From a virus: a DNA stretch of 64,000 bases. The notes under the pieces were generated by a model, which did no database searches, was not told the origin of the DNA, and saw only the letters and a list, made by a program, of their open reading frames with translations. The translations under genes and the position numbers were made by a program. Each line of letters starts with the position of its first letter. The first letter of the stretch is position 1. The stretch lies in the IMG/VR virus record IMGVR_UViG_3300042867_001113. One strand, given 5' to 3'. Of the stretch, positions 6,662 through 63,984 are shown piece after piece.

Positions 6662-6800
6662 TCGCTCGAAAGTGATCAGACGGGACCATACGGTCCTGAA
6701 AAAAGGTCGCAGATCTGCCCGTTTTCGAGAGAAGCCGGATCCGGTTTTGTGGCTTCGTAAAGCCGTTTTTTCACGGTCACCATGGCACTGAACGCAAGTG

Positions 6801-6828
6801 TTGACTCCGGCTCGGATCGCGTTATGAT
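6801..6828 (+). promoter_or_regulatory. sigma-70-like promoter
   Basis: TTGACT-N16-TATGAT upstream of the sigma-like gene. Confidence 0.7.
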
Positions 6829-6882
6829 GGGCGAAGAAAGTCCGGGCACCCGATGGATCGGGTCCACGCGACGGAGGCAGCC

Positions 6883-7530
6883 ATGACGACCCAGAAGACC
6901 CGCGCCGAACACCAGACCCCCAAGTTCGGCATCACCTACAACGACGCGATGAAAGAGGCGATGACGATCGCTGCCCGCGCCGCGCGTCGCCACCACAAGT
7001 GGGTGTCCTGCGGGAGCGACAAGGACGACCTGCTCGCAGCCGCCTACGAGGGAATCCTCCTCGCTTGGAAGGCGTGGAAGGGCCCCGAAGTGGTCTCGTG
7101 GTCGTTTGCCGCGTGGACCTATGCGGAGCTGTACGCTCGCCGCGAGGGGAACCGCCGCAAGTCCGTCGTGAGCACGGGCAGCGGCAGCTACTCGCTGCAC
7201 AAGGGCCGTCAGGCGGTCCGTGACGACGCCCTGCTGATGCAGAACGAGGACGGGGCTTGGGTCGACGCTGACCTCAAGGACGAACGCCCGCTTCCCTCCC
7301 AGCAAGTCGAGATGATGGAGACCCTCCGAGTGATCGGGGTCGCCCTCCGCGAAGCGATCCCCACTTGCGCGGGAGAGCAAGTCGCCCTCGCCCAAGACGT
7401 GATCACCCAACGTATTCTGATCGACGTTGCCCAGAGCGCGGCCAGCATCGCTGACAAGCACGGGGTGAGCAGTGCGACGGTCTACAAGGTTGAGACCGCG
7501 CTGCGCGGGGCCTTGCAGGCTGCTCTCTGA
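6883..7530 (+). CDS. divergent sigma-70-family sigma factor
   Basis: Region-2-like DDLLAAAYEGILLAWKAW...SFAAWTYA and C-terminal HTH SIADKHGVSSATVYKVE; GGAGG before ATG 6883. Confidence 0.7.
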   Translation: MTTQKTRAEHQTPKFGITYNDAMKEAMTIAARAARRHHKWVSCGSDKDDLLAAAYEGILLAWKAWKGPEVVSWSFAAWTYAELYARREGNRRKSVVSTGSGSYSLHKGRQAVRDDALLMQNEDGAWVDADLKDERPLPSQQVEMMETLRVIGVALREAIPTCAGEQVALAQDVITQRILIDVAQSAASIADKHGVSSATVYKVETALRGALQAAL

Positions 7531-7537
7531 ACGACAG

Positions 7538-7564
7538 CGGATCCGGGTGAAAAACCCGGATCCG
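7538..7564. repeat. 11-bp inverted repeat (terminator or operator)
   Basis: CGGATCCGGGT-GAAAA-ACCCGGATCCG just after the sigma gene stop. Confidence 0.7.
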
Positions 7565-7615
7565 AGTTACTCAACCCTCAGAGCGGGATGGTTCCCGCCT
7601 ACACAGGAGACGCAG

Positions 7616-7903
7616 ATGAACAAGAACAATACCGTCCGTCGCACCCTCATCCAGAACGTCGTCGCCCCCTCGATTCATGGCGCACTTGCTGCGGTCCCCG
7701 GGCTCGACCTCAACCGCGAAGAGGATCGACGCCGCACGATGCGCGCGACGGTCCACACCGTCGCCGGTCTCCTGCTGGAGAAGGGAGCCAACCCCAACGA
7801 GCTTCTGCAAGCCTGCATCGAGGCGATCTCGAAGGAGATGGAATCGCTGCAGGCGCAGCACGAGGGTGACGGCACCTTCCCACAGGCTGGAGCCAACGCC
7901 TGA
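7616..7903 (+). CDS. hypothetical protein
   Basis: AGGAG then ATG at 7616. Confidence 0.75.
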   Translation: MNKNNTVRRTLIQNVVAPSIHGALAAVPGLDLNREEDRRRTMRATVHTVAGLLLEKGANPNELLQACIEAISKEMESLQAQHEGDGTFPQAGANA

Positions 7904-8034
7904 GCCGCACCTCCGTTGACCTTGAAGGACGGGGGTGACAGCCTGCTTCCGTGCAGCCCAAGCAACTGCTCGTGAACCCCGCACCTGCGATTCTGTAGGG
8001 GCGGGGTTCGGCCTTTGTGGGGAACGCCGCAAAT

Positions 8035-8070
8035 GAAAGACCCCGGACCATACGGTGCCGGGGTCTTTTC
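8035..8070. terminator. intrinsic terminator between convergent genes
   Basis: GAAAGACCCCGG...CCGGGGTCTTTTC hairpin. Confidence 0.75.
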
Positions 8071-8100
8071 AATTCCGCGCAGCTCGGGGCTTTAGAAAAC

Positions 8101-9045
8101 TCAGCCACCCAAGGGAGGAACAACCACCGCAGGCACGCCGGGGCAGAGGATCATCGTGACCTCCACCTTCGGGTCGCACTGACGGAGTCCCAGCGTGTCG
8201 TCGTAGGCGTAGCCGTAGGCCGTGCTGTGACAGCCTGCGTGAACCGCCTTGACGTACTTGGTCTGCACCACGGGACCGGCGCTGCACTGAGCTGGAGAGA
8301 CCGGAGGAGTCGGGCAGCAGTAGGGGGCAGGAGCGTCCGCAGACGGAGGCTGCTGGCCCTTGCCACCGAAGGTCGGGTACGTGAGCGCCGCGCACGGCGA
8401 GAAGCAGGCCCCGGCTTCCCCAGCGACGCGAAGGTCGACAGCTGAAAACTCAGGGTGCTGCTGCGCGAGGCCCTGCGAGAGGTTTTCTGATGTCGGACAT
8501 TGGTTCAAGTCGAGGCCAGAGCAATCCACATCCATGCATCCGTTGGACTCGGTAGACGCTTCGATCCGGAACGGCAAAGTGAAGCCGTCGACAGCAGACG
8601 CGTTCCAGAAGGTGTTGGCGACTGGGTTCCCCTGAGCGGTCACCGCGCACTTCGTCTTGTCCTCAAGAGAGCAACCCCAGGTCGCTTCCAGTTTGGAGTC
8701 GACCGGCGGCGCGCATCCTGCGGGTGGGCACGGGGGAGACGACTGACCGACCTTGCAGTTGTTGCCGATGTCATCGCAGCCGGTCTTGGGCCAGTAGCGC
8801 ACGGAGGGAAGACCCGCGTCTGGGATTGGGAACGTCGCCGTGTCGCCCTTGATGAGCTTCGTCACGTCAGGCGAGCCCGTGTGGCCCTGCTGCTGCACCC
8901 ACACCGTGTCGGCGCACTGGTTGAGGATCTTGAGAGAGCGGCCCTCGGCCAGCTTCGGACCTGCGTCCGGAGCTGCGGGTGCCGGAGGTGTCGGGCACCC
9001 CGTGAAAAAGGCCGCGACCACGAGCACCGCATAGAAAATCTTCAT
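8101..9045 (-). CDS. thaumatin-like (PR-5) lipoprotein
   Basis: Signal peptide with FFTGC lipobox; NQCADTVW, RYWPKTGC, SAVDGFTLP, CFSPC, YCC and YGYAYDD thaumatin motifs. Confidence 0.9.
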   Translation of the reverse strand: MKIFYAVLVVAAFFTGCPTPPAPAAPDAGPKLAEGRSLKILNQCADTVWVQQQGHTGSPDVTKLIKGDTATFPIPDAGLPSVRYWPKTGCDDIGNNCKVGQSSPPCPPAGCAPPVDSKLEATWGCSLEDKTKCAVTAQGNPVANTFWNASAVDGFTLPFRIEASTESNGCMDVDCSGLDLNQCPTSENLSQGLAQQHPEFSAVDLRVAGEAGACFSPCAALTYPTFGGKGQQPPSADAPAPYCCPTPPVSPAQCSAGPVVQTKYVKAVHAGCHSTAYGYAYDDTLGLRQCDPKVEVTMILCPGVPAVVVPPLGG

Positions 9046-9083
9046 GGAAAACTCCGCACCTCGGAAATCGAGGTCGGCGGACC

Positions 9084-9302
9084 TTACCCTACGATCACGT
9101 CCGGGCGAAGGGCCTCGACGTCCACAGGTGGCTTCCCACAGACACCGCACTTCGCGGGCGCTTGGCGGCAGTTGATGCTGACCCGATTGCAGCACCGAGC
9201 GGCCCACACGACCTCTTCCTTCTGCTCAAGGAAGAGTGGCAGCAGCAACAGTCGGACGATCGGGTCGTCGCGCAGAGGAACGGGTGTCTCCGAGTCGCTC
9301 AT
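9084..9302 (-). CDS. small Cys-rich protein
   Basis: RCC...CGVC motifs; abuts the upstream gene. Confidence 0.55.
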   Translation of the reverse strand: MSDSETPVPLRDDPIVRLLLLPLFLEQKEEVVWAARCCNRVSINCRQAPAKCGVCGKPPVDVEALRPDVIVG

Positions 9303-9532
9303 CAGACCACCTCCGGAATTGGAATAACGTCGACGATGTCAGGCGGGCAGATGACCGACAGCGTGCGCCCGTTGTCCCAGCGGATTCCAAGTTGCCATTC
9401 CTTGGAGACCCCAGATGGGCTCCGCTCAAAGACCGTGACGGTGTGGACGGTCCCCTCAGTCCCGACAGGGATCGGGTCAGGGTCGTCAGGCATGTGGACG
9501 AGGCGGACGCGGTCACCTTTTTTCACGTTCAA
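9302..9532 (-). CDS. DUF4314-like protein
   Basis: GDRVRLVHMxDD..PIPVGTEGTV...WDNGRTL. Confidence 0.8.
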   Translation of the reverse strand: MNVKKGDRVRLVHMPDDPDPIPVGTEGTVHTVTVFERSPSGVSKEWQLGIRWDNGRTLSVICPPDIVDVIPIPEVV

Positions 9533-9540
9533 GTGGCACC

Positions 9541-10713
9541 TCAGAAGGGGAGGACGGTTGGCTTCTCGGGGACGTAGGGGGCGGGTGCTTTCGGCAGGTT
9601 TATGACCGGGGTGTGCGAGGTGATCATCGTCTGCTTCACCGCCGCCGCCTTTATAGCCGCCTTCGATGCCGCCGCTGCGTCAGCGAGAGCTTGCGCGTTG
9701 TCGACATGCTTCATCACGCTCGCCATGTCTGCGCTGATGGCCGCGACGTCGATGTAGGTCGGGGTCTTCTTGTAGACCTGCGTGATCAGGTCTGTGACCT
9801 GAGGAAGGTAGCTCGCGTCGCACATCCACGCCTTCGTTGCGGCGTCCCAGCTTCGATCCTTGTAGGGGATCATGTTCTTGAACCCCGCGATGAATGTCGC
9901 GTCGTAGGGCGTGTTGATCTTCAGGCTGTTCCCGTTCTTCTCGATTCGGCAGGTGGACACGGGGCCTCCGGGTGCTGGGGTTGCCTGCACTGTAACAGGC
10001 GTCAGCGTCGGCTTCAGTACCGCCGAGGTTGCGAGGAAGGCTTCCACCTCGACACGAGCATCCGCCAGTCCGACGGACATTGGGTAGTGCGTCTGGACGA
10101 TGGTGGCGAAGGCATCGAGGTGCTTCGGGTCAACACCGAACATCCGACGACCCGGTTTCGGAGAGGGGAAATTCACCGCGCCAAGACTGTGGAGCTTATG
10201 ACGTGCTGCTGGGCAGCGGGGACCGTCGACGAAGATTCGAGGGCCCTTTGATGTGAGGGGGTCGAAACGGACCACGGCATCCCCAGTAGCTGCCTCGCCG
10301 TTCCAGAGAGCCGCGACACCGAGGTACCCGAGCCATCGAGCGACTTCAGAGCAGGCTTTCAGCACCTTCCAGCGGGTGCTGTCGTAGCTCAGGATCTTCT
10401 CGATCTTGCGGATCGCGATGCGCCAGTCTGTCCCGTCGAGGTTCAGCGTGAGCATGCCGAGCAGGTCGGCATACGTTGCTTGCGCGTCGGGGGTGATGCT
10501 GGTGTCGGGGTTGATTGTCAGGAGCGCCATGAGCGCCTCTGGAGGGTTCGCTGGGATGCTGTTCGCGAGGAGCTTGTTGTCCTGCTTCCGGCAGATAGGA
10601 CCGATGCCCGCCTCGATGGAGGCCATGTCCGTCAGGTCTTTCCGACACCGGCAGCACGATCGGCCTGTGTGCGACTTGAACTGCGGGGCGACATTGCTTG
10701 TGTTGATGTCCAT
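9541..10713 (-). CDS. zinc-finger (DUF6011-like) multidomain protein
   Basis: CxxC..LTDxxSIExGIGPIC N-terminus; PYD..RSWDxxxKAW small domain; GGAGGAG RBS. Confidence 0.75.
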   Translation of the reverse strand: MDINTSNVAPQFKSHTGRSCCRCRKDLTDMASIEAGIGPICRKQDNKLLANSIPANPPEALMALLTINPDTSITPDAQATYADLLGMLTLNLDGTDWRIAIRKIEKILSYDSTRWKVLKACSEVARWLGYLGVAALWNGEAATGDAVVRFDPLTSKGPRIFVDGPRCPAARHKLHSLGAVNFPSPKPGRRMFGVDPKHLDAFATIVQTHYPMSVGLADARVEVEAFLATSAVLKPTLTPVTVQATPAPGGPVSTCRIEKNGNSLKINTPYDATFIAGFKNMIPYKDRSWDAATKAWMCDASYLPQVTDLITQVYKKTPTYIDVAAISADMASVMKHVDNAQALADAAAASKAAIKAAAVKQTMITSHTPVINLPKAPAPYVPEKPTVLPF

Positions 10714-10902
10714 CGGGTGCTCCTCCGAAAACCGTTCCGGTGATGCTGATGTAACTCGTGATCGTCAGATCCGTTTTCTGCGCTCGTATGAACAACAGCC
10801 GTGCTGGACCGTAGAAAACTCATGTTTCCGCGAACCTTGAGGTGATTCCCGCTGAAGACTGGGGCCGCAGATCATGCCCCGAGGGGCAGGGGGTTCGGAC
10901 AT

Positions 10903-10944
10903 TCCACGAGCGGGTTTGCCCACTCCACGAGCGGGTTTGCCCAC
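10903..10944. repeat. perfect 21-bp tandem repeat (2 copies)
   Basis: TCCACGAGCGGGTTTGCCCAC at 10903-10923 and 10924-10944. Confidence 0.95.
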
Positions 10945-11116
10945 ATACAGCCCCGATCCCCGTACATCGCGTCCGGAAGCCATTTTCACGGGTGATCACC
11001 AGATCTGGGATCGAGCAATATCTTTTTTTGAATTTATTTTCGCGCAGATCACCGCGTTCGGAAGCCGTTTTCCGCGCAGATCCGCAGATCAGTTCATTTG
11101 AACTCGGACGTGACTG

Positions 11117-11144
11117 TTGACTTCAACGCGGCTGGTGTTATGAT
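11117..11144 (+). promoter_or_regulatory. sigma-70-like promoter with extended -10
   Basis: TTGACT-N16-TATGAT with TG before the -10. Confidence 0.75.
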
Positions 11145-11182
11145 GATCTCACGGCACGGATGCCGCACCGAAGGAGCCCGCC

Positions 11183-11383
11183 ATGATCGCCATCGCTACT
11201 GTCCTCGCCACTGTCCCCAGCAGCAGCAACCCCGAGGTGGTCTACACGATCAAGCGCGGGGCCGACGGCAACGTCTACTGCAGCTGCCCCGCGTGGAAGT
11301 TTCAGAAGCTCAACCCCGCGCAGCGCACCTGCAAGCACCTCCGCAACCTCGCCGCCAGCATGAAGCAGCACGCCGCGAAGTGA
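11183..11383 (+). CDS. SWIM zinc-finger protein
   Basis: CSCPAW...CKH; AAGGAG RBS. Confidence 0.85.
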   Translation: MIAIATVLATVPSSSNPEVVYTIKRGADGNVYCSCPAWKFQKLNPAQRTCKHLRNLAASMKQHAAK

Positions 11384-11469
11384 GCTGCAGCTGCCCCGCG
11401 CAACGCAGCCTCCCCCGGTCAGCCCGGGGTTCAGGCGTAGCGGCACGGTTGCCGCGCAAGGAGCAAAAC

Positions 11470-11682
11470 ATGCGAACCCCCAAGACCACCAAGCTTCAAA
11501 TTGTCGAACGCGCCACGGGCGTGGTGCTCGACGCAGACGCTGCCCCCACAGCGTTTCTCTGCGCCAAGGGTGGACCCGCCGTCAAGCGTGATGGGTGCTG
11601 GTTCGAGACTCGCTACGAGGGGTTCGAGGTGCGCGACGGCGAGCAGATCTACGACGTCCGGGTCCGCGCCACTCGCGGTTGA
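11470..11682 (+). CDS. hypothetical protein
   Basis: AAGGAG then ATG at 11470. Confidence 0.65.
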   Translation: MRTPKTTKLQIVERATGVVLDADAAPTAFLCAKGGPAVKRDGCWFETRYEGFEVRDGEQIYDVRVRATRG

Positions 11683-11736
11683 ACTGAAGTTACTTCCCTC
11701 CCACAACCCGGCACGAATGCCGACTTGGAGAATGTC

Positions 11737-12015
11737 ATGAAAGCCGTCATCGGAAACACCTTCCCCGTGAAGGAGCAGATCAAAGCCCTCGGCGGTCGAT
11801 GGGACGGCATGAAAAAGTGCTGGAACGTCCCTGACGAGAAGTTCGATGCCGCGATGGCGCTCGTCACAGGAGCGGGCCCGAAGGGCAGCTACGTCGCCTC
11901 GACAGGCTCGGTGCGCGCCGCTCCCCGCCCATCGAAGGGGTGGCGACCCTGCGGCTACCCGGGCTGCAACAGAGCGCACTGCGATGAGTGCGATGGAGCC
12001 GGGTTCTACGGATGA
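11737..12015 (+). CDS. small protein with GGRWD..KCW (DUF5710-like) domain and Cys tail
   Basis: NTFPVKEQIKALGGRWD..W; C-terminal Cys cluster. Confidence 0.75.
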   Translation: MKAVIGNTFPVKEQIKALGGRWDGMKKCWNVPDEKFDAAMALVTGAGPKGSYVASTGSVRAAPRPSKGWRPCGYPGCNRAHCDECDGAGFYG

Positions 12016-12221
12016 CGCTCGATTGGATTGCCTGCAATGTCTGCGAAGACGACGGGTTCGTTTGGATCCCGTGCGTCCGCTACAGCACCGCGCACTGGCG
12101 CCGGAAGGGCGAATCGGAGTTTTCCATTGTGAAACACCGCGAGCGCTTCCGCTACCCGTGCGAATGCGCGCGCGGTTCGGCTTGGATCGAGGACCAAAGA
12201 CGAGGCAAGGATCCTGACTGA
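12012..12221 (+). CDS. small zinc-finger protein
   Basis: CNVC...CEC; ATGA overlap. Confidence 0.6.
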   Translation: MTLDWIACNVCEDDGFVWIPCVRYSTAHWRRKGESEFSIVKHRERFRYPCECARGSAWIEDQRRGKDPD

Positions 12222-12223
12222 GG

Positions 12224-12706
12224 TCAGCCGGATTTCGATGATCGAACGCCGCGCTTCTTCCAGTTCTCCAGCACCTTCACGCGCTTCTGCAAGTTCGCCA
12301 GCACGGCTTGGTTGTCCGCACACGCACAAGGAGCCCCTGCCTGCACCACAGGGGCGTCAGGAGCGGCCTCCGACGAATCCTCGTTTGAGGGAGGAGCACT
12401 CATCAGCTCGCCCTCCAGCGACACCTTCAGTTCGGAGACAGCCTGTGGGTCCACGTCCTTCGCCAGCGCAATCGCCTTCATGCGCTCATCGTGGCCAGCC
12501 TGCAGGACCATCTGCAGCTTCTTGCCGATGCCTGCCACGAGGACTGCGAACGCCATAAGCGCTCCGAGCAGACCGGACCCTTCCATTGTGGACGGCGACG
12601 TGGCTGGAGCCTGCGAGGGGTCAACAGCGATACTCGCGAGGTCATCGGGAGTCAGCCCCTCCGTCGGCGCGTCGTTCACGAGGGCCGCTTCTTCTTCTGG
12701 GTTCAT
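12224..12706 (-). CDS. membrane-anchored hypothetical protein
   Basis: One hydrophobic segment LLGALMAFAVLVAGIG. Confidence 0.7.
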   Translation of the reverse strand: MNPEEEAALVNDAPTEGLTPDDLASIAVDPSQAPATSPSTMEGSGLLGALMAFAVLVAGIGKKLQMVLQAGHDERMKAIALAKDVDPQAVSELKVSLEGELMSAPPSNEDSSEAAPDAPVVQAGAPCACADNQAVLANLQKRVKVLENWKKRGVRSSKSG

Positions 12707-13093: not shown

Positions 13094-13257
13094 AGCAGCC
13101 CAAGCTCAGGACGCGTTCCTACGTCGCTCGACAGGCGTGGGACCGGGGAGGTGCTGGTCCGCATCGGGATCAGAAGGCTCATGCGAAGCGGCGGGCCTGC
13201 AGGGGCCGCGTCACAGCCGACGATTGAGGACCATACGGGCCTGTTACTGGACTGGGT

Positions 13258-15302: not shown

Positions 15303-15604
15303 GGCAGCACTCTGATGGTCCCGACTGGGTCGGAAAGAAGTGACAGTCGACCCTTTGGCTCCGGAACGCTTGAAAGTTGGGCCGATATGGTCCCCGGCTG
15401 CCCATCGATGCACTCGTAGAAGCGTCCCGTTGGAGGACCGACGAGCATCGAGGCACCTTGCGTCACTGGGTAGACGTTCAGATCCTGCGGCTGCTCGTAG
15501 GATGGAACATCGCACGAGCTTGGATCTTCAGTCGGCCCACCCAAAGTCACGGGGTAGACGTTGAGTGGTTGAGGCTGCTCCCAAGACGGTTTCTCGCACG
15601 GCAT
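15299..15604 (-). CDS. hypothetical protein with internal duplication
   Basis: PS(W/Y)EQPQxLNVYPVT occurs twice. Confidence 0.7.
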   Translation of the reverse strand: MPCEKPSWEQPQPLNVYPVTLGGPTEDPSSCDVPSYEQPQDLNVYPVTQGASMLVGPPTGRFYECIDGQPGTISAQLSSVPEPKGRLSLLSDPVGTIRVLP

Positions 15605-16151: not shown

Positions 16152-18863
16152 TCACCGCTCAGTGTTGAAGTAGCAGTGTCCATAAACGAAGTCGACGAAC
16201 GCGGTGCGTGCAGTGGTGCCGACGAGCTTGAATAGCTGAAGCTGGATACCGAACAGGTCGGCACTGGTCGGTACTGGTGCGCCGGTCTGGGTCTGCACGA
16301 GGACATCATCGATGTAGTACGCAACGGAGGAGGCAGTGCGGTCCCACTCGATACGAAGAACGTACCAAGTGTTCGCAGCAATCGCCGACTCCTGTGAGGA
16401 TGTGTTTACGCCGTCGTTGCCGGTCACTGTGAACCAGACATTTGTACCGAGCGCGGCGCGCTGGTACTCGAACATCGCGTAGTCGGTCCCTGCGGTCTGA
16501 CCAGCGGTGTTTGAGAACCCGAAGCGGAACACATACTCCTGCAAAGCTGTGGAAAGAATCGAGAACTGAACGCGCGCACTGCACACCAGTTTGCCGTTAT
16601 TGGGCCGGGTCAGATCGGTTGTGCCGAAAACGTACTGGATTCCTGAGGTGGCAGCGACGCCTGTGTTCATCGACGAGATACCGAAGCTGTTGTTCGTGAG
16701 CCCCGCGACCGGCGCCGACGTTTGACCTGCGACAGCTCCCGTCGAGACCTCTGCCCACCGACTGTCGCTTGATATCGGTTGCCCGCTTGTCCGAACCATG
16801 TCGTCGATGAACTCGAACGAATGAAGCGCGCGTTTTGGTTCTTCGACACCGCCGCCGAGGTGGGTGGTATCTGACTGCACCCATAAGGCGAAAGAATTCG
16901 TGATGGTGGCGTTCGTACCTGCGATCGGAGCGCCTGCTACATAGAGAGTCGCAGCTTCCGATATGGTGGACGCAGCGGTGAACGAGTAGGTTCGGTTTCC
17001 GACGAGGGTCGTGGCCTGTAAACCGATGCTCCCCGAGTTGTACTGGATGGATGCTGTTGGGATGGTAGGTCCAAGAATGACGTCAAAGACGGGAGTGCCT
17101 GCTGTCTGTCCCGTCAGCGTCTGTCCCGACGCGAACAGCGCAGCAAACTTTCCTTCCGTCGTGTCAGCGGATGTTGCTGACGAAATTAAGACCGGCCCCG
17201 TGAGTCGCCCTGCATAGTTCTGCGAGGCTCCCGTGGGAGGCGCTACAAGAATGCCATACGCAGTGGTAACGAACGTCCCTCCGGGGTTCACGTTCGTTGT
17301 GGGTACTCGGATGCCTGCGGCGGACAAGATCGTTGTGTTGGTCCCTGCCTTTGGAAGAGACACCTCCAGCCCGACCGCGTTCGAGATCGTGGATGCGCCG
17401 ACAAAACTATAGGTCTGACTTTCAAGACGACTGCTTCTCTGTAGGGCAAGCGCTCCAGTGTTGAACTGGATGGTCCCGCTGCTCAGAGCGAAGTCGCTGA
17501 TCTCAGTGCTGGCAGGTTGAGCCGTCAGGCCGAGTGGGACAAGCCCCAAACTGGTCACGCCGTTGGAAGACCTGTCGCTGGCCACGAGAACCGGAGAGTA
17601 GCTGAGAACACCCGAGTCCCATCCCGTGCCCACCTGAATGCCGACGGCTGCACCACCTCCCGTACCGGGCGTCACGTTGGCGATTTCAATTCCCGCCAAC
17701 CCTACGGATGTGCGCGTACCCGTACCACTCGCAGTGATACGAAGACCAGTGGCGACACCGTAGTCGCCGCCGAACGTACCGATGTTGACCTCCACACCGC
17801 GTGCGTTCAGCGTCCCGCCTACAGCTGCCTTGGTGACATTCGGCATGACGACACGGTTGCCGTACCACGTCAGTGTGTTGGTGGACGTGTGCGTGAGCCC
17901 TCCGAGGGACGCGTCAAGCAAAACACCGTGATATGTGGACGGAGACACACCAGCTGACTTGGTGATCACAGGACTGTCGAGTTCCAGCATTGCGAAGTCA
18001 GCTGCGTTCGTTCCCACGTAGTTGGTTGCCCAGTCAATCTCGATTCCCTTGGTCGGGTTTCCAGATGCACTGAGGTACTGGCGCAGCCCCGTGGTGCCGG
18101 TGCTGCGAACGTCCATGTCCAGAAGACGGCCTGTGCTTGAACTTGCACTGGAAAGCGTCAGTGCGGTGGCTCCTGCGCTCGATCCCGGCTGGATCGTGGT
18201 GTGACCGCTTTTGCCAATGGAAACGCGTGTGGTGCCGCTATCACGGGCTCGGAAGATGTCATCAGAAACTGTGATGTTGTTGACATCCAGTGTTGATCCC
18301 GGCGTCGCGGAACCAACGCCCAAGCGGTCGTTGGTGTTGTCCCAGAACAGGTTGGTGTTGTCCTGCGTGTACACGCCGGACGCCCCTGCAAACACGACGG
18401 AGCCCGCCGTGAAAGCCGTCGCAGTGCCCGTGCCCCCGTTCACGACACCAACCGTTCCGCTCAGGCCGATGGTGATCGACCCTGCGGCGTTGACGATGCC
18501 AATGTTCGTGCCCGTTGTGAGTGTAGCCTTGTCGAAGTGGCCATTCGCCGTGTCCCCGATGAGGACTTGGCCGTTCGTCGGCGCGCTTCCAGCATAGGTG
18601 TGGATGCGACCGCCAGCCCCGACGGCGAAGTTGCTGAGAACCTCAAACGGATGCGCCACAGGAACCACGCCGATGCCGACTCGCGAGTTGATCGTGTCGA
18701 CGTCGAGCACTGTGACGGTGCCAAGGGCGTTCTGCACTCGGAACGCAGTGGTGCTGTTCGTCTTCGCGAGCACGGCACCGCCGATCTCCAGCGAGTCTCC
18801 CGCGACGGAAGGAAACTGGGCCGTGGTACCGCTGCCGATGACGAGAGGCTTCTGTGTGGCCAT
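16152..18863 (-). CDS. tail fibre / receptor-binding-like protein
   Basis: 903 aa, G/T/S/A rich; NGGTG and FWDNTNDRLGVG..P fibre motifs; C-terminal ConA-like WYVLRIEW..YYIDD. Confidence 0.8.
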   Translation of the reverse strand: MATQKPLVIGSGTTAQFPSVAGDSLEIGGAVLAKTNSTTAFRVQNALGTVTVLDVDTINSRVGIGVVPVAHPFEVLSNFAVGAGGRIHTYAGSAPTNGQVLIGDTANGHFDKATLTTGTNIGIVNAAGSITIGLSGTVGVVNGGTGTATAFTAGSVVFAGASGVYTQDNTNLFWDNTNDRLGVGSATPGSTLDVNNITVSDDIFRARDSGTTRVSIGKSGHTTIQPGSSAGATALTLSSASSSTGRLLDMDVRSTGTTGLRQYLSASGNPTKGIEIDWATNYVGTNAADFAMLELDSPVITKSAGVSPSTYHGVLLDASLGGLTHTSTNTLTWYGNRVVMPNVTKAAVGGTLNARGVEVNIGTFGGDYGVATGLRITASGTGTRTSVGLAGIEIANVTPGTGGGAAVGIQVGTGWDSGVLSYSPVLVASDRSSNGVTSLGLVPLGLTAQPASTEISDFALSSGTIQFNTGALALQRSSRLESQTYSFVGASTISNAVGLEVSLPKAGTNTTILSAAGIRVPTTNVNPGGTFVTTAYGILVAPPTGASQNYAGRLTGPVLISSATSADTTEGKFAALFASGQTLTGQTAGTPVFDVILGPTIPTASIQYNSGSIGLQATTLVGNRTYSFTAASTISEAATLYVAGAPIAGTNATITNSFALWVQSDTTHLGGGVEEPKRALHSFEFIDDMVRTSGQPISSDSRWAEVSTGAVAGQTSAPVAGLTNNSFGISSMNTGVAATSGIQYVFGTTDLTRPNNGKLVCSARVQFSILSTALQEYVFRFGFSNTAGQTAGTDYAMFEYQRAALGTNVWFTVTGNDGVNTSSQESAIAANTWYVLRIEWDRTASSVAYYIDDVLVQTQTGAPVPTSADLFGIQLQLFKLVGTTARTAFVDFVYGHCYFNTER

Positions 18864-19643: not shown

Positions 19644-20443
19644 CGTCAGGCAGAACGCTAGTGTGTGGCGATGTCCACGGATGTCTCCAAGAACTGAAGA
19701 TGCTACTCTCGCGTGCAGGCTTCAGGCAGGGCTCCGATCGGCTGGTTCTGGTCGGCGACTTGGTTGACCGAGGTGACGACTCTGTTGGAGTGGTCCGCTT
19801 CGCCATGGAGACCGGCGCGGACTGCGTGCTGGGGAACCACGAGGAGAAGCACCTTCGGTACCGCAGGCACGCGTTGAAGGCGTCTTTCGACAAGACCTAC
19901 AAGAACCCGATGCAGATGCCGCACCCCGAGGTCCATAAGACGATCACAGGCGCCGAGTGGGCTTGGATGGGTGCCCTCCCCCTCACGATCTGGCTCCGGC
20001 CCGACCTCGTGGTCGTTCACGGAGGCTTCTCAACGGACTCTCCTCCGGAAGCCCCGCATCTGAATTCTTGTCGCATCCGGTACGTCGAGAAGGACACCGG
20101 GGAGTCGAAGGGATCTGCGGACGGCATGTCCCAGCCCCCACAAACCGTTTTCTGGCCCGAACGGTACACGGGCGGAGCAACGGGGCGGGTCTCGGTCCTT
20201 TACGGACACCAGCCGTTCAGAGCCGTCCGGCACGACCGAGGGTTGGGACCATACGGTGCCGCCCGAACGATCGGCCTCGACACCAGCTGCTGCTACGGTG
20301 GCGTGCTGACCGGGTACTGGGTTGAGGAGGAGCGCTTCGTTCAATCGAAGTCGCTCCAGCGGTTCTGGTCAGCAGGCGTGGACTCTTCCCGGGAGGACTG
20401 GATGTCCGCGTGGACGGCCCGCCCCTCGAAGACGGTTCAGTAG
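19640..20443 (+). CDS. metallophosphoesterase (PPP / ApaH-like)
   Basis: GDVHG, GDLVDRG, GNHE, VHGG, YGH and LDT motifs. Confidence 0.93.
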   Translation: MTSGRTLVCGDVHGCLQELKMLLSRAGFRQGSDRLVLVGDLVDRGDDSVGVVRFAMETGADCVLGNHEEKHLRYRRHALKASFDKTYKNPMQMPHPEVHKTITGAEWAWMGALPLTIWLRPDLVVVHGGFSTDSPPEAPHLNSCRIRYVEKDTGESKGSADGMSQPPQTVFWPERYTGGATGRVSVLYGHQPFRAVRHDRGLGPYGAARTIGLDTSCCYGGVLTGYWVEEERFVQSKSLQRFWSAGVDSSREDWMSAWTARPSKTVQ

Positions 20444-23260: not shown

Positions 23261-23572
23261 TCATCTGTCTTGATAGCGTGAGCCGCAGCTGGTCGTGTTC
23301 CGCGAACGGGCGTGTCGAGCCAAGACGTCTTTGGCGTAGCTGTTGAGCGGTTGCTGGGCGCGTAGCTGTTCGGCCAGTGCGTCAGCGAGGATGCGTTCCG
23401 GCAACACCTGCTCCTCGACTTGGTCCATCAGCCAAGCGTTGAGGAAGCCCGCAGCGTGGCTGACAAGGCCATCCCACTCCTTGTCTTCCATCTGCTCACG
23501 CAGACTGCCGAAGCCATCAGGGTCGCTGTCGGCGAGACGGTTGAGGACTTCCTTGAGGTCTTTTGACTTCAC
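23261..23572 (-). CDS. hypothetical protein
   Basis: GTG start overlapping the upstream stop. Confidence 0.65.
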   Translation of the reverse strand: MKSKDLKEVLNRLADSDPDGFGSLREQMEDKEWDGLVSHAAGFLNAWLMDQVEEQVLPERILADALAEQLRAQQPLNSYAKDVLARHARSRNTTSCGSRYQDR

Positions 23573-23892
23573 ACAGCCACCTTTTCAAAGACGAGGGGGC
23601 CCCCGCAGTCAGGGCACTTGTGGTCCGCCGGAATTGCGTATGGCTCCATGTGCGAGTTCCAGCGGCAGCGGTCCTTGCGGACAGCGTTGATGTGCTTGCA
23701 GTAGTTCTTGCCGCCGTTCTTGACGTAGGCGGGGCATGTGCAGGAGTAGTCCCGCTGCACTCCTCGCGGATTGAACGTCTCTCCGTACTCGACCCGGTAG
23801 GTAGTTCCGGGGAGGGAGTCGGACGGGACCATACGGACCCACTCGCGGACCGATTGGCAGGTAGGGGCAGTCAGGACCGTGAAGTCGGGCAT
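23569..23892 (-). CDS. SWIM zinc-finger protein
   Basis: CTCPAY...CKH plus CPDC. Confidence 0.85.
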   Translation of the reverse strand: MPDFTVLTAPTCQSVREWVRMVPSDSLPGTTYRVEYGETFNPRGVQRDYSCTCPAYVKNGGKNYCKHINAVRKDRCRWNSHMEPYAIPADHKCPDCGGPLVFEKVAV

Positions 23893-25603: not shown

Positions 25604-25888
25604 TCACCTCCACGTCTGCAGCGTGCGGAGAAGTTCCTCGACGGAGACTTTGGAGAGTTGGAGCAACGCCGCGCGCCGGATTTCAGCTGCGGTGAACGTC
25701 TCTTCGGACGCCGTCGTCTTGGGAGAGACGCCCGCCTTGGTGATGGTGACCTCGTCGTCGAGGCCGGGGTTCGTCTTGTTGCGAACGAACTTGATCAGCT
25801 CGTCGCGGTCGTCGCACGAGATCAAGATTCGCGGTTCGCCTTCAGGCTCGTCGCGCAGGGCAATGTCACCGACCGCTAGGATTCTCAT
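25604..25888 (-). CDS. hypothetical protein
   Basis: ATG at 25888 with GGAG and GTTAC upstream. Confidence 0.7.
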   Translation of the reverse strand: MRILAVGDIALRDEPEGEPRILISCDDRDELIKFVRNKTNPGLDDEVTITKAGVSPKTTASEETFTAAEIRRAALLQLSKVSVEELLRTLQTWR

Positions 25889-26343
25889 GCTCCCTCCGTA
25901 ACAGGGTCCGTATGGTCCTCTTCGTTCCAGACCAGCTCCCCTGCGGCATTGGTTCCGATCCCCGCTCCTCGCCAAGCATCGAGCCCGGTCGGGAAGACGC
26001 GGATCAGCATACCGAAGTTCGGGGTCCGCACGAGCACGAGCGGCTCCCAATGGGAAGTCGCCCGGGTCTCCAGCACGGAGTTGCAGTGGTCCAGAAAACT
26101 CGGGTCTTCCCGAAGGTGGTCGAGGGCCATCCAGTGCTCCACCGCGTTGATGCTCTCGCCCTCCGCGTCGTACCCTCGATCTTCGTCGTCGGACCACCGG
26201 ACTTGCTGGGAGGTCATACCGACCAAGTCGCAGATGGTGCAGCGAGGATCGCTGAACTCGGCGGTCACGTTGTGCGGTCTGTTGAGCGACAGCACGCCTC
26301 GCTCAGGCATCCTGCAGACAGGGCAAAGGGTCCGATTGCTCAT
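25885..26343 (-). CDS. hypothetical zinc-finger protein
   Basis: CPVC...CTIC. Confidence 0.7.
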   Translation of the reverse strand: MSNRTLCPVCRMPERGVLSLNRPHNVTAEFSDPRCTICDLVGMTSQQVRWSDDEDRGYDAEGESINAVEHWMALDHLREDPSFLDHCNSVLETRATSHWEPLVLVRTPNFGMLIRVFPTGLDAWRGAGIGTNAAGELVWNEEDHTDPVTEGA

Positions 26344-28532: not shown

Positions 28533-28719
28533 GTCAGGGATGTAACAGGCTGGCGACCTATCAGGTGGAGGTTGACTGCCGACTAGGGGAAAGCACTGAA
28601 CAGAAAACTAGCACCCGGGGTTTCTCGGGAGGTTTTGAGAGGTTTCTAGTGGGTTTTCAGAGAGGTTTTCTTCAAGGACCACATGGTCCGTCTAATCCAC
28701 GTTCACTTGAACGTAGTTG

Positions 28720-30081: not shown

Positions 30082-30363
30082 TCAGCAGTTCGGGTCGCAC
30101 TCGGCGCAGCCGTGGCCGTTGCACACGCCGCAGGGCTCGGGAAGGTTGACGCAGAAGAGCCAGCCCGCGTTCGGGACGAAGACGTAGTCGCCAAGGGTGA
30201 GGGCCTTCACGGCGCGAACCATATGGTCCGTCGCATGTGGCGGGCACAGCGCCTTGACAGTGGCGATCGTCTCGTCGAGGAGGTGTAGCTGCAGGCGCTT
30301 GCGCGGCGCTACCTTGTCGAGGTCGCCTGCGAAGTGGAAGCGCCGTGCGTTCGGGTTGTTCAT
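30082..30363 (-). CDS. hypothetical protein with Cys tail
   Basis: CGVCNGHGCAEC; ATGA overlap. Confidence 0.65.
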   Translation of the reverse strand: MNNPNARRFHFAGDLDKVAPRKRLQLHLLDETIATVKALCPPHATDHMVRAVKALTLGDYVFVPNAGWLFCVNLPEPCGVCNGHGCAECDPNC

Positions 30364-31518: not shown

Positions 31519-31659
31519 CAAGCAACCACGGATCTTGTTCATATGAGCGGATCTGGCCGGATCTGACCGTCCGGCAGGCGACTCGCCCAAGCGGCTTCCG
31601 GGCCGGTTTCGGAAAACTGGTCCCGGGCCCCCGGGCGAACCATATGGTCCTCGCCCCCA

Positions 31660-42442: not shown

Positions 42443-42751
42443 CTAGACAACGATCTTCATGATGCGGTCGACTTGCTTGTCGTCGAGGCCGATCGTGTTC
42501 CCCTCCAAGTCAGAGGAGACAATGATGGCGGTGCCGACGACCGGGCGGGGACCATATGGGGTCACGAAGTAGCGGTTGAAGGGAAGATTCTTCATCAGGC
42601 CCTCCTCGTTGACCATCGCATCGATCCCACCACCGAGGCCCAGAGCCTCGATCCAGCCGCCGACTTCAGCCTGCAGAGCATCGAGGGTGTCCTCGATTTC
42701 GACCACTTCAGGGAGAGCCCCCGGACAAACACGGACAGCGCGGATTTTCAT
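42443..42751 (-). CDS. DUF3846-like protein
   Basis: LQAEVGGWIE...NEEG..KNLPFN. Confidence 0.85.
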   Translation of the reverse strand: MKIRAVRVCPGALPEVVEIEDTLDALQAEVGGWIEALGLGGGIDAMVNEEGLMKNLPFNRYFVTPYGPRPVVGTAIIVSSDLEGNTIGLDDKQVDRIMKIVV

Positions 42752-56972: not shown

Positions 56973-57027
56973 TTTATACTCCTAGACCGATGGTTGAGTG
57001 ACAGGGGCTGACTATTGAATGACAGGC

Positions 57028-58044
57028 TCAGATGATGAACCAGTCCCCGCTATCCTTTTGAACGGTGGCGCTTTCCCACTGAACAATAAGTTTTATCGAG
57101 GCTTTCGCATCAACTGTTCCAACTGAAGGAACCAAAACTACATGGTTTGGCGACGTATCAACCTTCTTTACGTTGAAGATTGATCCGATGCTCCCGTCCA
57201 AAGTGACTGTTATTTCCCCAGCCGAGGCGTCCACTAGAATTGTAAAGTCGCTTGGAAGAGTCGTCGTGTCCGTAGCGACGCTACGGATGGCGTTTGACCC
57301 TCCCCCAGAAGGGATTGCGGTCGAAACGCTGGTGATACGACCCTTGTTGTCGACGGTGATGACAGGTATGGCCGACGATCCTCCATAGGATCCAGCAGCC
57401 ACCCCTGAGGTGACCAAAGTCGGGCTTGGATAGGTGCCTGTGAGGTCGCCGCCTGCCGGGCCCGATGGAGGAGCGCCACCGACCGCGACAGTGCTCGCCG
57501 CTGTGACCCGTCCATCGACGTCGATGGTGACGACCGGAATCTGCGTAGCGGAACCATATGGTCCTGCCACAACGCCAGTGGACTGGAGCTGTGTCGGACC
57601 GACAGTGTTGGCTGCGATGGTCGGGTTCGGATACGTCCCCGCGAGGGAGCCCCCCGCTGGTCCAGTAGGAGAGCCTCCGCCTCCACCGCCGAGTGGCAAC
57701 CAATCCGCCCCATCCCATACATACATGACGAGCGGGGAGCGAGTGACGCGGGTGTCGCCCAGCTGGTTGCCAACGGACGGAAGGTCAGACGCTTGATAGA
57801 CCGTCGGACGCCAGTTCTGACCCAGCGGCCACGCCGGAACCAGCTCGTTGAGAAGCTCGCCGGGTGAGGGGATGATCTCGACGGTCAGTTTTCCAGCCGC
57901 CAACATCTGCTGGAGGCCCATCATGTTCCCCATCTCGACAGGAGAACGGGACACGGAAATTGGTCGTCCAGATCGCAACGTCACGTAGAGATCCCTGAGC
58001 CAGAGATCCTCTGTCGAGATGTTCGTGATGCGGAGCTGAGACAT
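57028..58044 (-). CDS. short fibre/decoration protein
   Basis: MSQLRITN anchor paralog; GPAGG.L.GTYP repeats. Confidence 0.85.
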
Positions 58045-58152
58045 TATGCGGGTGTCCTCAGTTGAAGTATCTGGGGCTTCTACTACGATCGCAACTTTGC
58101 TGTGCTACCGTTTCTGAGCCCGGTGCGGTACTGGGAAGCAACTAGGGACACC

Positions 58153-59286: not shown

Positions 59287-59339
59287 CTTGAGTTCGACCC
59301 CTTTCCCATCCGAGGTACATTGTGAGCGTCTCCAGCAAA

Positions 59340-60059: not shown

Positions 60060-60061
60060 AC

Positions 60062-60580: not shown

Positions 60581-60586
60581 GATCCC

Positions 60587-61480: not shown

Positions 61481-61501
61481 TCGACGTGAGTTTCTAACCG
61501 C

Positions 61502-61987
61502 TCACGTGACAGGCTCCGAGGTTGAGTTTTCTTTGGCCTTGGACTTTCGCTTTTTCTTCTCGGGCTTGTCGGGGACCGCAGACTCAGCGGGCTCCTTCAA
61601 GCCCGTTGTCAGGCCGAAGTGATACAGACGCCCCCACAGGTGCCATCCGCTGGAGAAGCCCGCCTTCTCGGCGGCAGCCGCATAGGAACCGCCTGTGCGA
61701 AGAACTCCAAGCGCCACGTTCACTCGGAGCATCGCGTTCTCGTAGCGCTCTTTGTGCAGACACTCGCGAGAGCAAAACTGCGCTCGCAAGGTCTGACAGA
61801 TCTTCCCGCACGTGAGACATGCCGAGCGGTCAGCGGCCCCGCGTCCTCGTCCTCGTGTTGGAACTCCCGCAACAGCCAGTGTCTTGCGGACCCACTCGTG
61901 TGAACGATTGAGCGCCCCTGCGACTTCGCGGAGATCCTTCCCGAGACCGTACAGCGTGACCGCCTGTTCTTGGATCGGAGTGAGCAT
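61502..61987 (-). CDS. HTH DNA-binding protein with zinc finger
   Basis: LREVAGALNRSHEWV HTH, CxxC..FCSxxC and a second HTH-like segment. Confidence 0.75.
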   Translation of the reverse strand: MLTPIQEQAVTLYGLGKDLREVAGALNRSHEWVRKTLAVAGVPTRGRGRGAADRSACLTCGKICQTLRAQFCSRECLHKERYENAMLRVNVALGVLRTGGSYAAAAEKAGFSSGWHLWGRLYHFGLTTGLKEPAESAVPDKPEKKKRKSKAKENSTSEPVT

Positions 61988-62025
61988 CTCTTCCTGTAGC
62001 TGTTACCAGTCCGTTGTGTAACAGT

Positions 62026-62214
62026 ATGAGCACGCAGTCAACTGCGGAGGTGCGCGTGAACACATCCTCGAACCAACTCGTGCTGACGAGTAGGCCCAGC
62101 GGCGGCGAGCTGCTCTGGGAAGCGTGGCGGATGTCAGTTGAGGGCTTCAGGCGTGTCGCTGCTGGTCTGGACATTGCGCAGGTGTTGAGAGAAGCCCGAA
62201 TGGAGAAGAGATGA
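62026..62214 (+). CDS. hypothetical protein
   Basis: ATGA overlap with the next gene. Confidence 0.5.
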   Translation: MSTQSTAEVRVNTSSNQLVLTSRPSGGELLWEAWRMSVEGFRRVAAGLDIAQVLREARMEKR

Positions 62215-62420
62215 ATGCAAGCGAGTCAGGTGCAGCCCTGCTGCGGGGACGACGGATGCAGACGGGCAAGTGCCCGGACCACGGGATCGTTCTCGTCACG
62301 AAGGGCGACATGATCGAAGGAGATCAAGTCGTCGGTCGGGTCTACAAGTGCCCGAAGGACGAGTGCCAGTTCGAGGTGGTCGCTCGCAGCGGGTCTCGGA
62401 TGATGAAGCTGCTGCGCTAG
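62211..62420 (+). CDS. small zinc-ribbon protein
   Basis: CPDH...CP...C; GGAG RBS. Confidence 0.7.
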   Translation: MNASESGAALLRGRRMQTGKCPDHGIVLVTKGDMIEGDQVVGRVYKCPKDECQFEVVARSGSRMMKLLR

Positions 62421-62659
62421 GCGGCGCGGATGACTTCGGAGCAGGACAACTCAGCGACGCGGACTCGGTGCTTGCGCTTCATGTCGAGCGCTCGCTCAAG
62501 CTCTTGCATGGCGAGGTCGAGGGATGTCTGGACGCGGCGCTCGTCGCTGGGCGGGGCTGAAGCAGCGACAGTCGGATTGATTGGGCGAGCGACACTGACT
62601 TGGGGAACAGCAGTCTCAGCAGAGTCGGTGCTGAAGTTCCAGCGGGTCGCTACGTCCAT
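62417..62659 (-). CDS. hypothetical protein
   Basis: GAGG then ATG. Confidence 0.55.
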   Translation of the reverse strand: MDVATRWNFSTDSAETAVPQVSVARPINPTVAASAPPSDERRVQTSLDLAMQELERALDMKRKHRVRVAELSCSEVIRAA

Positions 62660-62732
62660 GTTGCACCTCTTCAGGTCGAGTCTTCAAGAATTGCGCGACG
62701 GTTGCAACCGTCTCGACACTTCTTCGCCCGTG

Positions 62733-63074
62733 TCAAGATCGACCCTTGCCGTTGGTCAAAGCGTGACGCTCCAGTTTGTCAACACTGCTGACCAGTCGCT
62801 CCAACAGGGAATTTGATTCCGACCCCAAAGCGGTCTGCTCCTTGACCACCAAGAGCAGCTTCTCTGCCATGCGTTCGGTGTCGGCGACTCTCTTGCTCTG
62901 GTCGTCCCCGCGTGCCTTCTCAGCAGCGGCGACAAGAGCTGCCTGAGCAACGACCTGCGTGTGCAGGTCGTTGTTGTTCTTCCACAGGAAGACGACAGCG
63001 ATCATCGGGGCCACGATGAGGAGGCCCGCAATGCCGTAGGTCTTCATGATCAGAGCGAGCAATTCCTCAGGCAT
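62733..63074 (-). CDS. membrane protein (holin-like)
   Basis: N-terminal transmembrane segment followed by a coiled coil; AGGAGG RBS. Confidence 0.65.
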   Translation of the reverse strand: MPEELLALIMKTYGIAGLLIVAPMIAVVFLWKNNNDLHTQVVAQAALVAAAEKARGDDQSKRVADTERMAEKLLLVVKEQTALGSESNSLLERLVSSVDKLERHALTNGKGRS

Positions 63075-63112
63075 CGGCGATCCTCCTGACCGAACAAGAC
63101 TAGCGAACGGGA

Positions 63113-63448
63113 TCAGGAACGCGAATCTGTTGTGCTGGAGGGCGAAAGGTGTCTCTCCGACTTCATGGAATTCAGATGACGCTGGAGCCGTTCAGCCTTG
63201 ACCGCGAAGCCGCTGACGGCGTTGCAAGCGTCTTCAAGGTAGAGAGTAGATATTTCGTGCAGGATCTTCGCGGTCTTTTCATCCAGTTGAACATTCTCAA
63301 AGCGAGAGTGATCTGGAAAATCGTTGAAGACTGCCTGCAACACGCGCAACCACTCGTGCAGGTCGTCGTTCCAAGCCTCCAACGGAGTCTTCGGCTTCGT
63401 TGACGGCCTCAAGAACTTCCAGAAATTGGCGATCCACTGAAACATCAT
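63113..63448 (-). CDS. hypothetical protein
   Basis: GTTAC 9 nt upstream. Confidence 0.65.
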   Translation of the reverse strand: MMFQWIANFWKFLRPSTKPKTPLEAWNDDLHEWLRVLQAVFNDFPDHSRFENVQLDEKTAKILHEISTLYLEDACNAVSGFAVKAERLQRHLNSMKSERHLSPSSTTDSRS

Positions 63449-63984
63449 GTTCCTGAAGTAACAGGCCGAGTCTTTCTTTCAGAGGAACTTTTGCGGATGT
63501 GGCACGGCACACACAAGGTCTGAAAAGAATCCACTCCACCCGATGACTCTCCGACGTCGACACCGCCGCCTTGGGAGACCGGCACCATATGGTCCGCCTC
63601 CCACAGAGCGAGGTGCCTTGACTGGTGAGCCGGGAATCCCTTCTCCATACCGACTCGCTCCCGCTCCTCCAAGGGAAGATCGTACAGGCGCCGACGGAGG
63701 GCGAGCGTGTCGAGATGGCAGCACGCGCAGAAGCCCTTGTCTCGCAGGAAGACTTGAGACCGCAGGTACGCTGTGTCGCTCCGTAGCCGCCACTCGTGGA
63801 CACAGTTCGGACCACAGTAGGTGCGATGCGGCGGGAAGACTTCTCCGGCACACCAGCGGCACAGACGCCCGCCGTGGGCTCCTCGTTTCGAGGGCTTGGC
63901 TTCAGCGGAAGTCAGGCGCCGCTTTGTGCTCAAGGACGTCTTCCGCAGCACAAGCAGATGACCCCAGTGACGCTGGTCGTCCAA
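63445..63984 (-). CDS. HNH endonuclease (start uncertain)
   Basis: RDKGFCACC...EADH.VP...GGG...QTLCVPCH. Confidence 0.85.
   Translation of the reverse strand: MDDQRHWGHLLVLRKTSLSTKRRLTSAEAKPSKRGAHGGRLCRWCAGEVFPPHRTYCGPNCVHEWRLRSDTAYLRSQVFLRDKGFCACCHLDTLALRRRLYDLPLEERERVGMEKGFPAHQSRHLALWEADHMVPVSQGGGVDVGESSGGVDSFQTLCVPCHIRKSSSERKTRPVTSGT

Follow-up and report, generated by a model that had tools for sequence, protein, structure and literature searches.

What does a short DNA word do when it recurs, nearly without variation, inside and between the genes of a phage? This question is raised by the virus record IMGVR_UViG_3300042867_001113 (109,966 bp; hereafter G000), throughout which the 11-mer GGACCATAYGG is dispersed. 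The window, that is, the whole stretch of DNA analysed, is 64,000 nucleotides (nt) long and corresponds to G000:27264-91263; site coordinates are window positions unless prefixed. A first-pass annotation had described the element as part of a 14-bp quasi-palindrome and had listed 12 exact copies together with some near-matches. All 12 copies were found at the positions and on the strands given, and none appeared in any of 100 dinucleotide-preserving shuffles. The near-matches also exist, that at 28676-28689 reading GGACCACATGGTCC and that at 15380-15393 reading GGACCATATCGGCC on the minus strand. The complete record (110 kb) carries 18 copies, 11 forward and 7 reverse, and the C and T variants, with 9 copies each, top the 11-mer ranking of the genome. 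The sequence is a real, selected and lineage-specific recognition motif.

Three IMG/VR relatives with about 87% nucleotide identity and overlapping G000 (G1-G3) were combined with it into a composite map. Joining G000 97529-109966 to G1 54-12644 and G000 17-36238 to G1 56117-91506 gave a circular map of about 153.6 kb, which is consistent with a circularly permuted, headful-packaged genome. About 25 copies lie on this map of roughly 154 kb, approximately one per 6 kb, and the density is similar in the relatives (15, 10, and 10 exact copies). Recognition looks nearly all-or-none, because one-mismatch copies barely exceed the null (6 vs 2.2, with a null maximum of 5). Among the 20 CCATAYGG 8-mers of G000, 18 belong to the full motif. 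Half-sites alone are not enriched: GGACCAT occurs 32 times in G000, 18 times inside full sites, against about 14 expected from base-composition arithmetic. The 14-mer palindrome with up to three mismatches was detected at 14 places in the window, for an expectation of 2.2.

The motif is kept by selection at the DNA level. Enrichment over a codon-aware null had been set beforehand as a check, and it was observed: in 1000 shuffles that retain every protein and the codon usage of each gene, in-gene copies averaged 0.94 and never exceeded 5, as compared with 9 in the actual sequence. Rare codons spell these copies, including GTA (fraction 0.03), TAT (0.12), CCA (0.13), and CAT (0.19). As the annotation had stated, the copies lie inside unrelated genes in differing frames and strands, and the encoded peptides GPYG, DHTD, DHMV, DHMD, and PYGP were all confirmed. 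Taken together with the conservation among orthologues given below, the codon-preserving null and the minority codons bear out its proposal that selection acts on the DNA and not on the peptides. Chance or codon bias as the origin of the copies was rejected on the dinucleotide shuffles, the codon-preserving null, and the minority codons. The sites in the window are as follows.

6683-6696, plus strand: intergenic site GGACCATACGGTCC, 21 nt past a stop codon; 14 of 14 bases kept in G1 and G2, with flanks about 80% identical.
8045-8058, plus strand: site in the loop of a terminator-like hairpin, with convergent genes on either side (-28.8 kcal/mol, 0.8th percentile of random windows).
13228-13241, plus strand: intergenic site immediately past a TGA, 4 nt upstream of a promoter-like GTTAC; conserved in G2.
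15380-15393, minus strand: one-mismatch site GGACCATATCGGCC, possibly decayed or a chance occurrence.
20246-20259, plus strand: in-gene site in the sense direction, with the minority codons GGA CCA TAC GGT (GPYG); the G2 orthologue GGACCGTATGG has one mismatch.
23826-23839, plus strand: in-gene site antisense to the SWIM zinc-finger open reading frame (ORF) 23569-23892; kept in G2 within an isolated island of homology.
25905-25918, minus strand: site at the 3' end of ORF 25885-26295, 5 nt upstream of GTTAC and of the ATG of the next gene; conserved in G2.
28676-28689, strand not assigned: variant site GGACCACATGGTCC, with perfect arms and an altered centre; the same variant stands at the orthologous place G2:3114.
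30216-30229, minus strand: in-gene site (DHMV) in ORF 30082-30363; conserved in G2.
31637-31650, minus strand: intergenic site 9 nt past a stop codon, with a stable local fold (1.9th percentile).
33984-33997, minus strand: in-gene site (DHMD) near the 5' end of the DPBB lytic-transglycosylase-like ORF 33661-34050.
42549-42562, plus strand: in-gene antisense site (PYGP) in ORF 42443-42751.
57551-57564, minus strand: in-gene site (GPYG) in ORF 57028-58044, spelled by minority codons only (synonymous-codon fractions 0.16, 0.13, 0.12, and 0.20).
63582-63595, minus strand: intergenic site in a long hairpin, at its apex (-33.4 kcal/mol, 0.1th percentile).

On the composite map, with a coding density of 89.5%, 14 of the 25 sites overlap non-coding DNA or a gene end (P = 7e-7) and the other 11 lie inside genes; many occupy tiny gaps right after stop codons. 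The spacing is more even than random, as indicated by the coefficient of variation of the gaps (0.62 vs 0.95, P = 0.007) and by the smallest inter-site gap (1362 bp, P = 0.002). Orthologous positions were then compared. Of 13 G000 sites with an aligned orthologue in the relatives of about 87% identity, 10 were identical at 11 of 11 positions, a degree of identity that 32% of random 11-mers reach (P = 0.001). Intergenic sites also survive in more distant relatives, where their flanks are 66-80% identical, the sole change seen being T/C at position 9. A copy lies 20 nt into the gene for a protein designated P0001, which is encoded outside G000, and is conserved in four lineages; there, an H-to-R amino-acid change leaves the motif intact. 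Site gains, losses, and decayed sites were also observed among the relatives.

The annotation had read the flanks as converging on a perfect palindrome and had proposed a dimeric protein as the binder. The first reading was corrected, and the second was not supported. Beyond the 11-mer, only C at position 14 is conserved (16 of the 18 copies in G000); positions 12-13 are free, the flanks of the copies are unrelated, and the perfect palindrome GGACCATATGGTCC is absent from this genome. The site is not truly palindromic, one strand carrying the full 11-mer. Against a symmetric dimer stand the single strict 11-mer strand of each site, the free second arm in this genome, and the lack of a TCC arm in ATAT-centred sites. 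Over 70 distinct contexts, the TCC arm was found in none of 26 ATAT-centred (T-type) sites and in 15 of 44 ATAC-centred (C-type) sites (P = 3e-4), a count that mixes lineages and includes orthologues and is therefore confounded. In the L044/L209 lineage, both arms are perfect and the centre is always the asymmetric ATAC. With respect to transcription the orientation is mixed, 15 of the 25 sites being co-oriented and 10 opposed, and three sites have the motif on the opposite strand in an orthologue (window 8045 in G2, G1:28841 in L033, and G000:619 in L211). These flips argue against an RNA element or a promoter.

The distribution of the motif among relatives follows a well-defined on/off pattern. 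It was present in contigs with a capsid protein at least 86% identical; at capsid identities of 77% or below it was essentially absent, with a single stray occurrence (in L051) over about 370 kb of fragments. It was also absent from one intermediate-distance lineage (L032 and L045, and L208). A scan of cellular genomes with the 14-mer version gave only single, taxonomically scattered matches, and the 80 stretches concerned (594 kb), each with one chance copy, hold no second; uptake sequences and Chi-like sites, as motifs spread host-genome-wide, would be dense in the chromosome of the host. Among 120 viral stretches holding the perfect palindrome, no further copies were found except in the relative L227 and in a 15-kb contig (L281, two sites). 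A full-text literature search for comparable motifs returned nothing relevant.

A second motif of the same layout was detected in the relative IMGVR_UViG_3300017963_000204 (G4, comprising L067-L073; 129 kb, capsid 64% identical). This genome has its own exact 14-mer GGATCGGACGATCC in 11 copies, 5 of them intergenic, which resembles the motif studied here in the 14-bp length, the GGA...TCC ends, and the asymmetric centre. G4 also bears 13 copies of CCAACGGAGGGG, each ending up 4-8 nt ahead of a start codon, apparently as an extended ribosome-binding sequence or one associated with the start. In an unrelated phage (L214/L215; IMGVR_UViG_3300037466_003214 and 3300037418_002133), GTCAGAACTGA, part of a 5-2-5 quasi-palindrome, occurs 7 times in 20 kb. 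Several phages of this sample seem to carry dispersed quasi-palindromes. Two further repeated words, the L032-specific 10-mer GCCTGTGACG (4 copies) and the 10-mer CTCGAAGAGG of G5 (10 copies), were judged to be coding or composition effects.

The carrier of the motif is a phage with a gp23-like major capsid protein, less than 35% identical to the capsid of any cultured phage listed. Megablast against phage records gave zero matches, and there is no close cultured relative. G000 also encodes RecA/UvsX-like, DnaB, DnaG, helicase-loader, and RuvC-like proteins. The sequence is present in 20 metagenome runs from lake water or freshwater, with no RNA run among those listed. In G000 and G001, which together cover the map, we found no tyrosine integrase (Phage_integrase), no serine recombinase (Resolvase), and no above-threshold helix-turn-helix (HTH) of the HTH_3/Xre type, a search that a repressor of unrecognised family would escape. 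The CbiA/ParA profile (PF01656) gave no match in G000, G001, and G002, and matched in 14 of 14 control genomes. As none of these functions was found, the phage looks virulent; it is an uncultured T4-like (gp23-type) phage of lake water. A 486-residue DNA methyltransferase is encoded at window 39232-40692 on the minus strand (PHROG 67, E = 3e-60), and no link between it and GGACCATAYGG was found.

Taking these observations together, we give somewhat better than even chances to the view that the 11-mer, together with the C conserved at position 14, is recognised in double-stranded DNA by an asymmetric, sequence-specific protein. Each site would be bound by a single chain with two DNA-reading modules or by an otherwise non-symmetric complex, and the binder would be phage-encoded more likely than host-encoded. 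There is a precedent in a two-domain monomer that binds over 20 scattered asymmetric sites of 13-14 bp (PMC9283540). Each site may act over a neighbourhood on the kb scale, since the copies stand apart from one another and do not gather at promoters. The action might be that of a global transcription roadblock or regulator, or of a mark identifying phage DNA.

We then searched for the binding protein. Comparison of gene presence and absence between motif-bearing and motif-free relatives, with about 44 kb comparable, yielded no candidate. Pfam and PHROG scans of about 50 site-adjacent proteins detected no DNA-binding domain except HTH_58 (61502-61987) and the winged helix of the replication initiator. 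Just upstream of the HTH_58 gene, at window 62002-62022, lies an inverted GTTAC ... GTAAC pair, possibly an operator or a divergent promoter. The most concrete candidate reader is P0001, for which the evidence is mixed. A homologue 91% identical to it is borne on a 153,911-bp contig. The AlphaFold2 (AF2) model of P0001, with a predicted local distance difference test (pLDDT) score of 80, has two strand-helix-helix units after an HNH-like zinc domain, and the latter lacks the catalytic histidine throughout the family. Its best domain-level Foldseek matches were HNH nucleases, a chain of the F-plasmid relaxosome, and VirC2. TraY of the F-plasmid relaxosome and VirC2 are single-chain proteins with tandem ribbon-helix-helix (RHH) folds. 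P0001 may accordingly be modelled as a dead-HNH, tandem-RHH protein, with the conserved motif copy noted above near the start of its own gene.

Three other proteins were considered and set aside. The 116-residue protein encoded upstream of the large terminase, considered as a specificity factor, is hypervariable, with 28-100% identity between genomes that carry the motif. The capsid gene of G1 is directly followed, at L016:17338-18378 on the minus strand, by the gene for a free-standing 346-residue homing endonuclease of the LAGLIDADG type, which has helix-turn-helix repeats at its N terminus; it is sporadic among close motif-bearing relatives and hence unrelated to the motif. The initiator-like winged-helix gene (G000:14816-16873), after which come the helicase-loader, DnaB, and DnaG genes, holds a probable replication origin (L009:15790-16210), where the GC content dips to 42% next to GGGGACATC, repeated at least five times in direct and inverted orientation. 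The initiator has these iterons of its own, unrelated to GGACCATAYGG, and the idea that the motif represents initiator iterons or initiator-bound dispersed origins was rejected.

Several observations weigh against a phage-encoded asymmetric binder. No protein tracks the presence and absence of the motif, and binding by a protein is what we infer. Homologues of P0001 exist in motif-free relatives; in one of these, L032, with 14.4 kb and no site, the RHH strands are almost unchanged. The arm count that bears on the asymmetry is confounded, as noted above, and one perfect palindrome does occur in the relative L227. Sites that are almost all-or-none are more typical of nuclease-grade recognition than of operators. 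Finally, the same exact motif is kept in lineages that share only 40-60% protein identity, and a slowly evolving host factor therefore fits this constancy at least as well as a phage protein.

Reading of the sites by a host protein, such as a nucleoid-associated protein, a transcription factor, or a DNA-processing enzyme, is accordingly the first alternative to be weighed; lineages growing on that host would accumulate the motif and those on other hosts would lack it. Besides the identical 11-mer in distant lineages, the equally distant L208, L032, and L045 have none, and in the comparable 44 kb just one gene is missing from the motif-free relatives, a gene that other motif-bearing lineages lack as well. 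With its 5-4-5 layout around an ATAT centre, the site may resemble winged-helix boxes, for example the Gram-positive LexA box CGAACATATGTTCG, a likeness that we counted for a host factor. This is opposed by the cellular stretches, which hold no second copy, and by the unrelated viral stretches with the perfect palindrome, nearly all of which hold no further one. The different motif of the same layout in G4 also stands against it and reads more naturally as a phage-encoded specificity. On balance, we consider a host reader rather unlikely.

The even spacing favours the idea of a genome-organisation or packaging tag, which the annotation had also raised. In its strand-specific form, a phage enzyme or motor would use the one-strand 11-mers, about one per 6 kb in either orientation, for nicking, clamp loading, or packaging entry and would thereby tell phage from host DNA; related T4-like lineages would have evolved tags of their own, of which GGATCGGACGATCC might be an example. 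We regard such a strand-specific tag as unlikely. A further proposal, to which we assign a still smaller chance, holds the sites to be targets of a strand-specific nicking enzyme, as in T5, phiKMV-like phages, and tf, or oriented loading or initiation points for packaging or clamp loading. It would explain why the full 11-mer is on only one strand of each site. Recognition is exact, of nuclease grade with few degenerate copies, the form that would put the 11-mer on both strands is avoided, and the spacing is even; phage tf, with 14 nicked copies of a 9-bp asymmetric consensus, provides a precedent (PMC3517423). However, the tf sites are all on one strand and the phiKMV-like nicks are in the non-coding strand (PMC3517423), whereas G000 has 11 plus and 7 minus sites. 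The HNH domain of P0001 is without its catalytic histidine family-wide, and the perfect palindrome in L227 is likewise contrary to this proposal.

The annotation had also drawn an analogy to parS centromeres. G000 does encode a ParB_N protein of 269 residues (G000:1455-2264) in which the N-terminal domain of ParB (E = 2e-12) was recognised, along with a GGEHRW box; it might load at the sites and slide or spread along DNA. KorB, with its dispersed palindromic operators, silences distant promoters as a clamp dependent on cytidine triphosphate (PMC11790492). Nevertheless, the analogy was not supported. No ParA-type ATPase was found in G000, G001, and G002, no HTH was recognised in the ParB_N protein, and the sites are asymmetric and evenly spread, not clustered near its gene. 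The protein is a conserved core gene product with more than 300 homologues, the best 120 listed all being at least 53% identical. It is 81% identical in L208, which is motif-free over 20.8 kb, including places orthologous to two phage sites, and on this ground it was rejected as the motif reader. A ParB/parS-like or KorB/OB-like system is very unlikely.

Some sites are placed as if they acted in RNA or at transcription: they might form terminator hairpins, be sites of RNA processing, help to initiate translation, or serve as promoters that a phage-specific polymerase or sigma factor recognises. The copy at 8045 was indeed in a terminator loop, as annotated, within a strong hairpin followed by a T-run; a simple terminator scan omitted this hairpin because its loop exceeds the limit of the scan. 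The site is kept in G1, and in G2 the loop, hence the motif strand, is inverted. In total, 7 of the 25 sites lie in hairpins with a folding energy no higher than the 5th percentile, several of them terminator-like and some with T-runs; most intergenic sites stand 0-40 nt past a stop codon, and the central ATG is the called start codon in four sites. Two copies, 13228 and 25908, are located 4-5 nt upstream of GTTAC as had been reported, at the -35 position of this element. Against a signal of this type, the other 18 sites showed no unusual fold, and the 3' arm needed for pairing is not conserved; intrinsic terminators at every site were rejected on these grounds. The conserved half is 5' in some transcripts and 3' in others, the orientation flips at orthologous sites, and 6 in-gene sites are antisense. 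Separate promoter-like elements, GTTAC and, in the structural module, CTAGG, are already present. An RNA-level or transcription signal is hence hardly probable.

These elements deserve a description of their own. Upstream of genes, the sequence (T)GTTAC is about 10 times as frequent as expected (in 31 of 193 regions vs 3). It was located at window 13243, 22378, 23902, 25898, 28542, 29659, 33119, 35159, 35671, 43192, and 63458, with about 30 more in G000. Many non-structural genes have a copy exactly 9-10 nt before the ATG, without a Shine-Dalgarno sequence, and the structural module is nearly free of it. From this placement, GTTAC looks like a -10-like promoter element for leaderless or near-leaderless mRNAs. 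The sequence CTAGG/TCTAGG recurs in short intergenic gaps of the G1 structural module (for example L015:6450-6530, 17590-17620, and 18010-18050), in 13 upstream regions vs 1 expected, and is a candidate late-promoter element.

A recombination linker or mobile-element footprint at mosaic junctions is extremely improbable. A few sites (window 8045, 23826, and 25908) do come within 20-60 nt of the edge of a conserved block, but the distances of the sites to block boundaries did not depart from random expectation (P = 0.19 and 0.45). The copies have unrelated flanks, and the LAGLIDADG endonuclease encoded beside the capsid gene turns up only sporadically in genomes that carry the motif.

A few phage groups are known to have dispersed, exact recognition motifs, namely the stoperators of temperate actinophages and the nick sites of T5, phiKMV-like phages, and tf. 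The motif GGACCATAYGG adds a clean, statistically solid case from an uncultured freshwater T4-like lineage, with a well-defined phylogenetic on/off pattern and a second motif of the same layout in a related lineage. If its sites are self-marks or regulatory anchors of kb range in a virulent phage, they would constitute a genome-wide control layer not described for T4-type phages. Among the systems available for comparison, Cluster O mycobacteriophages carry many copies per genome of 17-bp dyad-symmetric repeats, mainly intergenic and truly symmetric, which are lineage-specific and for which neither the binder nor the function is known. The present motif is like these repeats in its lineage specificity and in its many copies along the genome, and unlike them in sequence and host group. 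A system from plasmids is that of KorB, which binds its operator OB as a dimer, alongside the ParA-type partition ATPase IncC. As with the OB sites of plasmid RK2, which act over kb distances, our sites are dispersed, near-exact, of similar length, and in part far from promoters (PMC11790492). The OB core TTTAGCGGCTAAA is, however, a true palindrome (PMC11790492), whereas the site described here is asymmetric, no ParA was found, and the ParB_N protein does not track the motif. ParABS systems differ further, in that here no HTH was recognised in the ParB_N protein and the asymmetric sites are over-dispersed around the whole map.

The nick sites of tf, T5, and phiKMV-like phages share with our motif a short, exact, asymmetric consensus with few degenerate copies; there, it is repeated about 5-14 times in the genome of a virulent phage and is of unknown function (PMC3517423). 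Unlike the tf sites and phiKMV-like nicks, confined to one strand, the copies here are on both strands (11 and 7). Nearest in site architecture are the stoperators of Cluster A mycobacteriophages such as L5 and TipsytheTRex, which have more than 20 dispersed asymmetric sites of 13-14 bp read by a monomer with two DNA-binding domains (PMC9283540). These phages are temperate, the binder is the immunity repressor, and the orientation of the stoperators follows transcription, reversal abolishing function (PMC9283540). The analogy to stoperators that the annotation had drawn does not hold in the strict sense: in this T4-like phage no integrase, resolvase, or Xre-type repressor was found, 11 of the 25 sites are inside genes, and the orientation is free, being independent of transcription and flipping between orthologues. 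In architecture the likeness remains, at least 20 conserved asymmetric sites of 13-14 bp being spread genome-wide in both cases (18 in the record and about 25 on the map here), many of them in short intergenic gaps.

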